64,000 nt of DNA, from contig NC_087064.1 in NCBI RefSeq assembly GCF_963678635.1, forward strand, positions 32,745,028 to 32,809,027. The letters run 5' to 3'. The stretch's first letter is position 1; every line of letters starts with the position of its first letter. Below, piece by piece: positions 46,632 to 63,400 of this stretch. Under the pieces are notes generated by a model that saw only the letters and a list, made by a program, of their open reading frames with translations, did no database searches and was not told where the DNA came from. The DNA comes from Symsagittifera roscoffensis (taxonomy: Eukaryota). A program made the position numbers and the translations under genes.

Positions 46632-48204
46632 TTACTGTGGTCCAATACTCGCGAGAGTTTGACTGCTGGTCGGTGTAGAACCCCCCCTGCTAGTTTTAAT
46701 TTCGCAGGGCCAAAGACCTCGAGGCGTTAGGTCTTCCAGTATCCATACAAGGTCTCCTTGCTGAAGATTTTCCACTTGCTTGTCCATTTCGTTCGGGTCG
46801 TCAAGGTTGGCAAGTATTCTTTGAGGTATCTGTTCCAGAACTGTTGACTCAAGGCTTGAGCTTGTTTCCAAGTTCTCTTGTCTGTTGTGTGGCGAGGGAG
46901 AAACAATCCGGGAGGAAAATTGTTTGTTGGTCGTCCTAGTAGAAGGTGATTGGGTGTAAGGGGCTCGTCGTCGGTTGGCTCTGATGAGACGTGGGTTAGC
47001 GGGCGAGAATTCATCATAGCTTCAACCTCGCACGTGAAGGTTGACAGAGTTTCGTCGTCCAGTGTCCGTGTTCCAATGACTTTGTAGAAGGCAATCTTAA
47101 ATGTTTTTATGAGGCGTTCCCATGATCCACCAAAGTGACGAGCTGCAGGTGGGTTGAACTTCCAGGTTATTCCAAGTAATTGGCATTGATTGTTGAAGTC
47201 GTTGCTGTGTTGAATCTCAGAAAGGCTTTTCCGTTGTCAGATAAGATGACCCTGGGTTTACCGCGTCTAGCGATGAAACGGCGTATGGCTTGTAGAGTTA
47301 AGTTTGTGTCGATTTGCTGGAATATTTCTGAGTGAACTGCTCGCGTGACGAGGCAGGTGAAGAAGAGAACGTATCGCTTACTGTACTCGTCGTTGTTCCG
47401 CGTGGCAAAGGGTCCAAAGAAGTCAATTCCTGTTGAGTAGAAGGGGTAACTGTTTTCGGATAAAGGGAGTCGTTGTAGGGGTAGATCTGCCATCAGAGGT
47501 TTCACTGGTTCCTGTCGAAGGCGTCGGCAAGGTATGCATTGTCGAATAGTTTTCTTCAGATGCTTGTGTGATCTTATGATCCAAAAGTCCTGGTGAAGAA
47601 TGCTTCGGGTGTGTTCCATTCCACAGTGGGAATTTATTTCGTGTGTTTGCTTCATGAAGAGTTGTATTGGGTAGTTTTCTGCGTTCAGAATGACTGGATG
47701 TCGGCTGCAAAGTAGAAGCGGGGCTTTCTGTAGTCGTCCTTTGGCACGTAAGTATCCGTGATCGTCGATGAAGGGGCAAAGAGGTTGTAGAGGGCTGCTG
47801 GTTGGAATGTCAGATTTCTTTGTCAGGCATGCTATTTCCTTGGGGACTGATTGATTCTGTGAGTGTTTAATGATCCATGCGAATCCTAAGGTGAGGTGTT
47901 GAAGTGAGAGGCTCTGGCGTGTCTTCCTTTTGATGTTTTCTGCGAAGAGAAGAACATATGAAGTAACTCTGAGTGCTCTTGTCCAAGTGCTAAATCGGTT
48001 GAAGTCGATTACTGATGTTGGCGGTTGTGGGTTGTTGTCTGTCAGATGAATATCGGCTGTAGGTTGTGTTGGCGGGTGATTAGGGCAATCTGATGATGGT
48101 CTTAACAAGAAGTCTGGTCCTTTGATCCATCGTGAATCGGTAGTCATGTCACATGCTTTGTAACCACGTGTTCCGTCGTCTGCAGGGTTGTCTTTGCTGG
48201 GCAC
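46632..48204 (-). CDS. Integrase region of BEL copy A. ORF 47167..48204 holds the HHCC zinc finger (H..H…CIPC) and the DDE core (FYSTGIDFFGPF…ILSDNGKAF). ORFs 46727..47017 and 46632..46871 are the C-terminus. The region is split by frameshifts.
   Basis: Motifs in the translated ORFs. The 3' part is distributed over two overlapping frames. Confidence 0.65.
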
Positions 48205-48210
48205 GTATCT

Positions 48211-60451: not shown

Positions 60452-63400
60452 CCGCTTTTGACTCTTTATTAGTCGTTGTTTTGGGACACATTTTGAACCT
60501 TCGATAAAAAAAGGTGCTTGTTAGTTGCTGTAACTGAAATTGGGTGATTTGATACGTCTTATTCAACAAATTAATCTGAAGGTCAATAGGATACTCCTGA
60601 ATCAACCATCTTTCTGAAATTTTTTGCAAAAATTTTTCTGCTGACGGAATAACAGACAGGGTTGGGCGACAATCTGTAACTAGCCTCGATTTGAAACAGG
60701 CAAAAATCAGAAAGGAATTGGCTTCTATCTCACCGTTGACTAGTAGCCGGGCTGTTCTCCGTTTGCTACATTAGGCATGCGTGAGTCTGGTCGCTTAGTA
60801 TACTTTACTTCATGTAAAACATGAAATAAAGCGTTACTAGTTGTCGCTTTTTCTGAATTGTCGCTCTTAGAAGCGTTTCGGCTCACGAGTTGACAGCCGA
60901 AAGCGTCCATTATCTGAAGCTAATAAGGAAAAGCCTGAGATCACTGCTATTCAAGAAAAAGAATTTTTTTTGGAAATTGTTCAGTCCGACTATATCGGCT
61001 ATAATGATAACGTGTTAGATTTTGATCGAGTTTTTAAAATTGGACTTGCTTTTTTTAATGGTTAAACCACTCAACAGTTTTTGTCGTTTAGATATTGGTA
61101 TGTCTACTCCAGTTTCAATCTGGGATCCGACTGGCCAAGTGCCGTTCAAAACATCAAGATCAAGTGCGCCACCATGCAACAGCACTCCTATGATGAAGCC
61201 AACTCTCACTTTATCATTTAGACGTCCATTGAATTCTTGATTTAAAATAGCTCAACAAGACTCCTATGATGAAGCCAACTCTCACTTTATCATTTAGACT
61301 TCCATTTAATTCTTGATTTAAAATAGCTGATAGAAATAAATTCATTTAGATAGACTTACAATACAAAATCTAATCTAACAATTTGAAATGGTTTGTCTCT
61401 TATTGATTAATCATTGTGAAATAAATGAGTGTTCGTGTCAACATAACCAGAAAAAATGTTCTTGAGGCAGCGGAAATAAACAGGTTTCATAATTATACAT
61501 GGTTAATTTGACGCAGACAAAAATTTGAAATGAAGAAAATGCTTATTTTTATTGCGATTTAACGTTTAGAACATTAATTATAAAACTTCACCATTTGTTT
61601 TTCTGAGACCCAGTTAGTAAGAAGAGTGACCTAAATTTTTTGTCACGCGGCCTTTCTTAAATATGCCTTTCTTAATTCACAAGTTTTCAGCCGAGTTCAA
61701 TACGCAGGTAACAGACACGGGGCAAATAAGTTACAATTTTTTTTGTAAGTTTGTTCGTGCTTCAGTTTGCAAAATTAACGAACGTTTTTCATAGCAGATA
61801 TACTGGGCGGCTTGAGAACGCATCATAATTATCTGTGTCAATTATTTTACCATCAGAAAAAATAGCTGAAAAGATTGGACTTTTCCGTATCAGCAGTCTT
61901 TAGAAAAGGTTGATCTAATTTCAAAGGCTAATCTGCAGTTGATTAGTTCATTTTTTGAGCTTAAATTTGATTATAAAATAAAATCAAATAGGTACTGTTG
62001 GAGCTAAAATGTCGAAGCAATTCTTCTACTTCTGAAGTTGACCAATAACAGAAATTCGTGATCCTCGCGAAATTTCGGAATAGCCAAAATTAAATTTTTT
62101 TTCAAAATTTTCATGTTTGGAGAAATAACGATTATTTCACGTGTTCAAATAACGAAACCTTTTGTACTTCATTAAATTCTAAATTTTTCAGATTTATTGG
62201 TTGTGCCTTTTTGCCAGCTTAACTGAGTTTTTGTTTGAAGCTCGCTTCAACTTCATTCTCTAAGTAGAGCTTAAATTAACATCTCCAATAGCAGAAATGT
62301 TGCCTTGTTGTTGGAAATGATAAATTAATTTTTCAAAACTTTCGTTCGAAAAAAAAGCTAATAATCCGAACTGAAATTCAGTAAGTATTCGCCTGCGATC
62401 TATTCGTAAAGTTCCAGTTCTGTGATTTAGTTCTACCAAAAAGAATAATCATAATTGAAGAGCGATATACATTTCATTCTAGCAACGTGTTAGCAACAAA
62501 TCATTCTGGCTCCTTAACTATTCGAAATTCCTCTGAGACTCCGAAACTATTTTTTTTTACATAAGCTGTTTGTGAAAAAAAGAACAATGCTAATTTAAAT
62601 TAACTGAACATAACGACTCAAGACTGAAATTTAAAACGCATTTTTCTCAAATTGGGCTGGCGATGGACAAAAGAAAGAAGGTGACAATTCTTAACTATAA
62701 TTTAAACAGAATCAGTATGAAACATTTTAAAGCGCGATTCGGGCCCAAATTTGATTTCAGAATTTGTCATTTTTGCTTTATAGTTAATCAAAAACAACGC
62801 AAATAGATCTCTCCAATTGTTGACAAAAGTACAAGGCTGGCGTGTTATTAACACATTGTTTTTAACAAGGGTATATTTAACATGTTATTAACCTGCTTTG
62901 TTCTTAACAGTGTCAAGTTGCGTCAAGTGCTGGCCTCGAAAGGTGCTTTTCAACCTTGGGATTCACCTACGGGAAGTTACGAGCCTCAATGGGGGTCGAA
63001 AAAGCTGGGAAACTGGCTTTTTTGTTCAAGCAACTCAAGCAGGAGAGATGTAGTTATTCGTGTAGATGGAAGAAGATTGTTTTGTTCGTATTTCAAGACG
63101 GGTCTCGTTGATCGTGGGTAGTCCTGGGTGATTGTGTCAATACTTCTGATCGATGCAATGATGTATCGATTTTCTTAAGTTTAGAGCGAGACTACGTGCA
63201 GGGTGAAGTTTGACTTTTACGTGTGAAGTGCCAAGGGACTAGGATCGGTATGTGAGATCAATATCGTGATGGCCATTGGTCTGGTTCAATGGGTTTCCTT
63301 TGCTGCGATGTTGGGTCCCTACTGAAAATCTTTTGAGGGTAGTGACTTCGGCAACAAACCAAATAGGTTTGCCATTCCTGAGTTGGAATGTTGTCGAGTT

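Follow-up and report, generated by a model that had tools for sequence, protein, structure and literature searches.

A tandem duplication of part of a BEL/Pao element and its host flank in the acoel Symsagittifera roscoffensis

How does a genome come to carry two nearly identical stretches of one retrotransposon in head-to-tail order, each continued by the same piece of host DNA? This question is raised by a BEL/Pao long terminal repeat (LTR) element on the minus strand of a 64,000-nucleotide stretch of Symsagittifera roscoffensis DNA (assembly GCF_963678635.1, contig NC_087064.1, positions 32,745,028‒32,809,027 of the forward strand; hereafter the window, in whose own numbering coordinates are given). 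An earlier note, made from these letters alone, had described a tandem segmental duplication of about 6.9 kb that captures most of the element together with 1.37 kb of host flank, and self-BLAST and global alignment agree with that description. Here, we describe the duplication, a single-copy allele and a second duplicated haplotype. The duplication seems very probably to have arisen by a microhomology-mediated, homology-independent join.

The duplication unit and its junction

A repeat scan, self-BLAST and global alignment place copy A at 48041‒54954 and copy B at 54955‒61840, directly repeated head to tail with no spacer. The duplication unit is 6,914 bp long, and the start-to-start spacing of the copies varies with indels between 6,870 and 6,914 bp. 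In total, the copies differ by 23 substitutions and 7 indels; the segments 48041‒54958 and 54955‒61840 align in two blocks with identities of 99.64% (4,728 bp) and 98.94% (2,166 bp), and the 64-kb window contains no Ns. The start of the duplication had been put at 48051, and the alignment moves it 10 bp further left, to 48041. The proposed correspondence between 53581‒54953 and 60452‒61835 is accurate within about 5 bp.

The unit consists of the 5′ 5.5 kb of the BEL/Pao element and 1.37 kb beyond the target-site duplication (TSD) of the element. From left to right, copy A (minus strand) holds the linker between RNase H and integrase (RH-IN linker), RNase H, reverse transcriptase (RT), protease, gag, the 5′ LTR and the 1.37-kb host flank. 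The TSD, CCGCT, is found at 46311‒46315, directly before the LTR start TGACAATGG, and at 53582‒53586, directly after the 5′ LTR. Because this TSD brackets only the complete element (46311‒53586), the segment 53582‒54958 is host DNA. This flank of copy A opens with the right TSD and contains a 76-bp repeat in two copies at 54296‒54447; the corresponding flank of copy B (60452‒61840) carries a 10-bp insertion at 61007‒61016 and runs unbroken into unique DNA at 61841. Neither end of the unit is an end of the element: the RH-IN linker contains one, and the other falls in host DNA, 1,372 bp beyond the TSD. Since 1.37 kb of the unit is outside the TSD, the duplication took place at the DNA level and not by transposition.

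The junction between the copies reads TTATCTGA-GTCA-GATGAA. With slashes marking the breaks, the left parental breakpoint at 48041 reads GTTGTCT/GTCAGATG, and the right parental breakpoint at 61837‒61841 reads ATCTGT/GTCA/ATTATT. The four bases GTCA at 54955‒54958 are common to both parental breakpoints; a short microhomology had been noticed here before, and the comparison of the parental sites gives its length as 4 bp. At a random blunt join, a microhomology of at least 4 bp has a probability of 0.016. The junction is single and holds no inserted bases, with no templated insertion or multi-junction complexity. No new TSD is present at the boundaries of the duplication, where the 4-bp microhomology forms the sole repeated flanking bases. 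Base 54954, beside the junction, is A in both duplicated haplotypes; copy B and the single-copy allele have T at this site, and this change says nothing on the repair pathway.

These features bear on two explanations that involve the element more directly. Non-allelic homologous recombination (NAHR), either between LTRs, which would produce an LTR-internal-LTR-internal-LTR array, or between other dispersed repeats at the breakpoints, has some prior appeal in a genome composed of 61% repeats, 85% of which are LTR elements (PMC9911081), and three LTR copies are present in the region. However, neither breakpoint is located in an LTR or any repeat, the unit takes in 1.37 kb beyond the TSD, and the breakpoint flanks (600 bp around the two sites) are no more similar to each other than shuffled controls (local score 14 versus a shuffle mean of 14.0). 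NAHR is therefore very improbable, and the assembled junction sequence already refutes it. In the second explanation, reverse transcription of a transcript reading in from the host flank gave a copy, truncated in pol, that integrated beside its source. The duplicated segment is indeed co-linear with a transcript that runs from the flank through the 5′ LTR and gag into pol. On the other hand, copy B has no new TSD, second LTR or poly(A), and the integration would have to be exactly in register with the source. Moreover, the flank of copy B lies beyond the TSD and continues into the ancestral right-hand DNA without a seam, just as the flank does in the single-copy allele. We regard this retrotransposition-linked origin as vanishingly improbable, and the statement in the earlier note that copy B is not a new retrotransposition holds.

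Duplicated and single-copy haplotypes

Copy number and junction were judged from the window and from assembled contigs found by exact-sequence look-up. In ERZ25878734, contig ctg14398l (29.6 kb; L003) is co-linear with window positions 62292‒61841 and then with 54958 down to 45122. It contains, in this order, the right unique DNA, the flank, the 5′ LTR, the whole element including integrase, the 3′ LTR, the same TSD and the left flank. The unrearranged sequences across 48041 and 61840 are both present and the duplication junction is absent, and on this evidence ctg14398l represents a single-copy allele with the same outer flanks. In ERZ25071366, contig ctg22271l (840 kb; L005/L007) has the identical junction with the 6,914-bp spacing in mid-contig; differences at 0.3‒0.7% of sites and an indel of 1,010 bp set it apart from the window. 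This contig represents a second duplicated haplotype, as judged from these differences, and comes from a separate assembly, though not necessarily from a separate animal. The 1,010 bp are extra in the second duplicated haplotype (L007 3919‒4932) and are located at 63038, 1.2 kb to the right of the duplication.

Since one junction is shared by two diverged haplotypes and a single-copy allele exists beside them, the duplication appears to be real, of single origin, not new and still polymorphic, segregating with at least two diverged haplotypes that have it and at least one that is single-copy. A comparison of haplotypes had been proposed as a check in the earlier note, and it comes out in favor of the duplication, with the junction recurring in ERZ25071366 ctg22271l and ERZ25878734 ctg14398l being single-copy.

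An alternative is that the assembler placed two haplotypes from one sample, heterozygous or pooled, end to end, so that the junction exists on no real chromosome. Assemblies of S. roscoffensis have been inflated by under-collapsed heterozygosity (PMC9911081), and a metagenome-style contig that matches the window breaks inside copy A. This contig, ERZ25878734 ctg23342l (221 kb), is 100% identical to window 49602‒64000 and ends at 49602. Another contig of the same assembly, ctg14856l, matches window 17271‒40741 at 99.99%. Against an artefact, the window has no gap, and the join is precise, lies within unique sequence and carries 4 bp of microhomology. In a different assembly, the identical junction recurs in the interior of a contig of 840 kb, on a distinct haplotype with variants of its own. 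Furthermore, copies A and B differ from each other by 0.5‒0.6% in 48041‒49640 and each differs by 1.4% from the single-copy allele; these are three distinct sequences, which counts against a false duplication in the assembly. We consider an assembly artefact highly improbable, in agreement with the earlier claim that the locus is not an assembly duplicate.

The contig end at 49602 is less than 40 bp from 49640, where the differences between copy A and the single-copy allele cease, as expected of a branch point in an assembly graph.

Decay of the element and divergence of the copies

The minus-strand element classifies as BEL/Pao by its LTR ends, its TSD, and the families and order of its domains. 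Its LTRs are 190‒193 bp long with the ends TGACA...AGACA. The 3′ LTR of the complete element (46316‒46508, minus strand, 193 bp, TG...CA) is 96.4% and 96.9% identical to the 5′ LTRs of copy A (53392‒53581, minus strand) and copy B (60262‒60451, minus strand), respectively. Leftwards of the copy A 5′ LTR on the plus strand, there is a primer-binding-site-like sequence, TGGCGCAC; TGGCGCACAATAG begins 1 nt inside the 5′ LTR, and the tract beside the 3′ LTR is weakly purine-rich. The raw open reading frames (ORFs) of the window match the Pfam families DUF1759, RVT_1, Peptidase_A17 (Pao), Integrase_H2C2 and rve. The integrase part (46509‒48040, minus strand), which comprises the H2C2 zinc finger, the rve core and a DUF5641 remnant, is unduplicated and has no second copy in the window; in its ORF at 47167‒48204, Integrase_H2C2 covers residues 182‒229 and rve residues 261‒329, and DUF5641 is in the next frame.

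We reconstructed the ancestral sequence of the locus from its five copies and another family copy. The reconstructed ancestor has one ORF of 1,802 residues with DUF1759 at 393‒533, RVT_1 at 1069‒1194, Peptidase_A17 at 1258‒1421 (E = 5e-38), H2C2 at 1639‒1686 and rve at 1718‒1786; DUF5641 lies in the frame following this ORF. The left breakpoint, 48041, corresponds to codon 1512 of the reconstructed polyprotein, which is 91 residues past the Peptidase_A17 match, about 40 residues past the RNase H motif DNPAD and 127 residues before the integrase zinc finger. The breakpoint had been assigned to the integrase gene, and codon 1512 instead places it in the RH-IN linker, upstream of all integrase domains. 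The internal region of copy B (54955‒60261, minus strand), which is cut at the RH-IN linker, matches DUF1759, RVT_1 and Peptidase_A17, and thus copy B keeps gag through RNase H without any recognisable integrase domain.

A relative 96% identical to the pol ORF belongs to a 90% cluster of 306 members. The S. roscoffensis protein XP_063728315.1 in the same cluster is 94‒96% identical to either copy and comes from another family copy, and other family members in this species have one ORF of about 2,177 residues. At 46706, 51 bp of the 3′ coding region of the element are missing in both duplicated haplotypes and kept in the single-copy allele and another family copy. In the 3′ LTR, a 7-bp indel at 46397‒46403 differs between the two duplicated haplotypes. 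Another family copy, L001 (ERZ25878734 ctg20754l, 2.3% diverged), is an internally deleted variant that lacks 1.68 kb with the N-terminal ORF and the start of gag (L001 10052‒10056, corresponding to window 51537‒53220).

The lesions were compared in a five-way alignment of the copies in the window (A1 and B1), those in ctg22271l (A2 and B2) and the single-copy allele (H), and polarised with L001 where possible. A frameshift between the N-terminal ORF and gag-pol is present in all locus copies, and other family members read through there; the element was therefore dead before the duplication. All four duplicated copies, and neither H nor L001, have a TGG>TGA stop at codon 1455 (48211‒48213, minus strand) together with 11 other substitutions in 48211‒49640. 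This stop is common to copies A and B, which likewise means that the element was already dead.

Other lesions are specific to one copy. Stops in the RH-connection region of copy A had been reported, and a CAA>TAA stop (48559‒48562, minus strand), produced by a tandem GG>AA change at 48561‒48562, is indeed found. In addition, copy A has a 1-bp deletion at 48786‒48787 (minus strand) that shifts the frame between RT and RNase H. Both lesions are copy-A-specific and shared by A1 and A2, as are further sites at 48708, 49471 and 54954, the base beside the junction. The reported 1-bp RT deletion of copy B was located at 55936‒55937 (minus strand), opposite A 49025. It is copy-B-specific and shared by B1 and B2, as are changes at 48098‒48099, 50470, 50488, 51914, 53488, 53702, 53747‒53748 and 54855, a small indel at 48552‒48558 and flank insertions of 1, 10 and 1 bp. 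Private to copy B of the window are a CGA>TGA stop (56522‒56524, minus strand), five more substitutions and a 41-bp deletion in the N-terminal ORF (59674‒59675, minus strand, opposite A 52764‒52804). A deletion of about 43 bp in gag had been described for copy B; the deletion is there, its length is 41 bp, and it belongs only to copy B of the window haplotype. Deletions of 9 bp and 4 bp, among other changes, are private to B2, and an 11-bp deletion at 48392 is private to H.

No CpG or methylation signature was found in the copy B changes (5 of 16 at CpG sites; CpG observed/expected about 0.93 everywhere). Tandem double substitutions account for 4 of about 25 point-mutation events between the copies (GG>AA twice, GT>AA and AC>TT), at 48098‒48099, 48561‒48562, 53747‒53748, 54772‒54773 and their copy B partners. 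GG>AA, equivalent to CC>TT, is a classic UV-type change, and such changes in a sun-exposed photosymbiotic worm are suggestive, with tiny numbers.

The clustered differences of H in 48106‒49640 were considered as an ectopic gene-conversion tract from another element copy. This was ruled out by the divergence of about 1% that continues leftwards through the integrase part, the 3′ LTR and 1.2 kb of host flank. The H differences in 48106‒49640 are thus haplotype divergence and not a patch confined to the element. Host DNA to the left and right of the duplication shows a divergence of about 1% between H and the duplicated haplotypes as well.

Several points weigh against a simple history in which one microhomology-mediated duplication was followed by decay of both copies. 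ERZ25878734 contigs ctg23342l and ctg14856l probably derive from the same underlying data as the window and are not independent of it. The single-copy contig ctg14398l ends 446 bp into the right-hand unique DNA, and the assembler of ERZ25878734 (contig names of the form ctgNNNl) is presumably able to collapse near-identical paths; a collapsed duplication might therefore conceivably underlie the ctg14398l haplotype. Finally, the segment 49641‒54953 holds 11 B-specific and 0 A-specific events (binomial p = 0.001), an asymmetry that a single duplication with clock-like decay does not predict.

In this segment, A1 is identical to H (0/5,313 differences), and the identity stops no more than 1 bp from the duplication junction. 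Between A2 and H there are 7 substitutions, and B1 and B2 depart from H by 12‒13 substitutions and 4‒8 indels. Three candidates may account for the asymmetry: a later allelic exchange in which H and copy A took part and whose tract ended at the junction; a duplication that arose from exchange between two different homologues, with copy B starting as another allele; and a presumed collapse of near-identical paths by the assembler behind both ERZ25878734 contigs. An artefact cannot be the whole cause of the asymmetry, since the B-specific variants are likewise missing from A2, which comes from another assembly.

The second candidate amounts to a different origin, an unequal exchange between different homologues in which A and B began as different alleles; much of what separates A from B would then be older than the exchange, and the duplication could be younger than their divergence suggests. 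The identity of copy A with the single-copy allele over 5,313 bp, with copy B differing from both, is consistent with such an exchange, and so is the lack of the B-specific variants in copy A of the second duplicated haplotype. The allelic diversity at the locus is high, as seen in the flanks, and high heterozygosity has been reported for natural populations of S. roscoffensis (PMC9911081). However, when H and the other family copy are taken as reference, copies A and B have 12 derived substitutions in common in 48041‒49640, together with the 48211 stop, in keeping with descent from one duplicated ancestor. B-type variants were not seen on any unduplicated chromosome among the contigs examined, and the identity of A with H could stem from later allelic gene conversion or assembler collapse. 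An exchange between homologues therefore seems rather unlikely to us. The A1-H tract, if real, would tentatively be explained by a recent gene conversion or double crossover between duplicated and unduplicated alleles that was stopped by the breakpoint, or by a duplication between homologues; either way, divergence would be no clock for young tandem duplicates in highly polymorphic outcrossers.

The divergence between A and B is thus an unreliable estimate of age. The relative order of events can be approached in other ways. The LTR-LTR divergence (4/190) exceeds the fixed A-versus-B substitutions (17/6,900; Fisher p = 0.002), which places the insertion before the duplication. The two duplicated haplotypes differ by 0.10‒0.13% within each copy, and the duplication seems to be older than their split. 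The earlier note had concluded from private lesions that the duplication is not recent. The conclusion stands, because two diverged haplotypes have one junction. The lesion argument itself carries less weight than it seemed to, as the 48211 stop is shared and the differences in the right 5.3 kb are, relative to the single-copy allele, all on copy B; these B-side differences could partly pre-date the duplication or result from later gene conversion.

Returning to a microhomology-mediated join, the history of the locus may be outlined as follows. A BEL/Pao element would have inserted on the minus strand of the S. roscoffensis genome, creating the 5-bp TSD CCGCT, and then decayed. Later, on a haplotype lineage that already carried a stop in pol, one DNA-level event would have joined the host flank at 54954, 1,372 bp upstream of the 5′ LTR, to the RH-IN linker at 48041 through the 4-bp GTCA microhomology, giving the 6,914-bp direct tandem duplication. 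The duplication would have segregated as a polymorphism since then, with continuing decay of both copies. The repair route could be replicative template switching, such as FoSTeS (template switching when forks stall), MMBIR (break-induced replication mediated by microhomology) or slippage over a long range, or the joining of ends between sister chromatids or between homologues. A junction alone cannot distinguish microhomology-mediated end joining (MMEJ) from replicative template switching (PMC4056370).

Host context and comparison with known systems

The duplication shows no sign of function and would presumably be neutral. Flank ORFs, Pfam, Rfam and a protein search revealed no host gene or regulatory effect of the duplication. 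The exon-like ORFs of the left flank (45199‒45486 and 45655‒45888) had no Pfam match and no homologue in a search of 5.8 billion proteins, the ORFs of the right flank are short and unremarkable, and a 100-residue ORF across the junction (54816‒55118) is a by-product. At gathering score, Rfam gave no family match in the window or the flank. ARAGORN called a tRNA-SeC (anticodon TCA) at 54199‒54284 and 61080‒61165; Rfam found no tRNA in the flank even at E≤10, and these calls are probably false positives.

Other repeats occupy the window to the left of the duplication. A remnant of a second, far more divergent BEL/Pao pol (28‒42% amino acid identity to the present family) lies at 41407‒43636 on the plus strand and adjoins an array in which a repeat of about 530 bp occurs about three times in tandem (43671‒45140); an inverted copy 8 kb to the left (35314‒35919) is related to this repeat. 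The single-copy haplotype cannot be aligned to the window left of 45122, and the array therefore varies in structure between haplotypes. At 27107‒30868, there is a non-LTR retrotransposon with an intact 1,157-residue ORF (PHD finger, AP endonuclease and RT), bracketed by an inverted repeat of about 135‒146 bp (27107‒27241 versus 30723‒30868), which is unusual for a long interspersed nuclear element (LINE). The 90% cluster of this ORF has 16 members, and the 15 compared are 98‒99.9% identical to the window ORF; this LINE family looks recently active. Finally, a 75-bp tandem repeat with 14 copies (17723‒18806) lies within an ORF with a Pfam match to the nucleoporin FG-repeat family (E = 5e-51) and appears to be a coding minisatellite in a host gene.

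The duplication is an ordinary structural variant, a fresh instance of a well-known kind in a little-studied phylum, and is not surprising; its significance beyond the S. roscoffensis genome is slight. It does provide a segregating tandem duplication in an acoel that is cleanly resolved, with duplicated and single-copy alleles both in hand, and it is usable as a PCR marker. It also calls for caution in repeat annotation, which would take copy B for a truncated solo insertion and would arrive at inflated counts from the LTRs. In highly heterozygous species, differences between tandem copies are not directly readable as age. To our knowledge, no such variant has been described in an acoel.

The element itself resembles known BEL/Pao elements (Pao, BEL and Cer-type) in its TG...CA LTRs, its 5-bp TSD and its domain order of DUF1759 gag, RT, the Peptidase_A17 region, RNase H, integrase H2C2 and rve, and DUF5641. 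It differs from them in that its LTRs are short (190‒193 bp) and the copy is defective in all haplotypes seen, and in the nature of copy B, which is no insertion and consists of part of copy A, duplicated along with host DNA. Arrays formed by unequal recombination between LTRs also have two internal regions and three LTRs in a row in one orientation. In those arrays, however, the units share an LTR and are without host DNA, whereas at this locus 1.37 kb of host flank stands between the units and the junction falls within the RH-IN linker. Among copy-number-variant breakpoints in Drosophila and humans, simple junctions that show 2 bp or more of microhomology form the most frequent class (PMC4056370). 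The locus matches the microhomology tandem duplications of these species, which are attributed to MMEJ, FoSTeS, MMBIR or serial replication slippage, in its direct head-to-tail copies, its clean junction with 4 bp of microhomology and no inserted bases, its lack of long breakpoint homology and its polymorphism. It differs from them in nothing essential, apart from a unit that is mostly a dead retrotransposon and a host that is an acoel.

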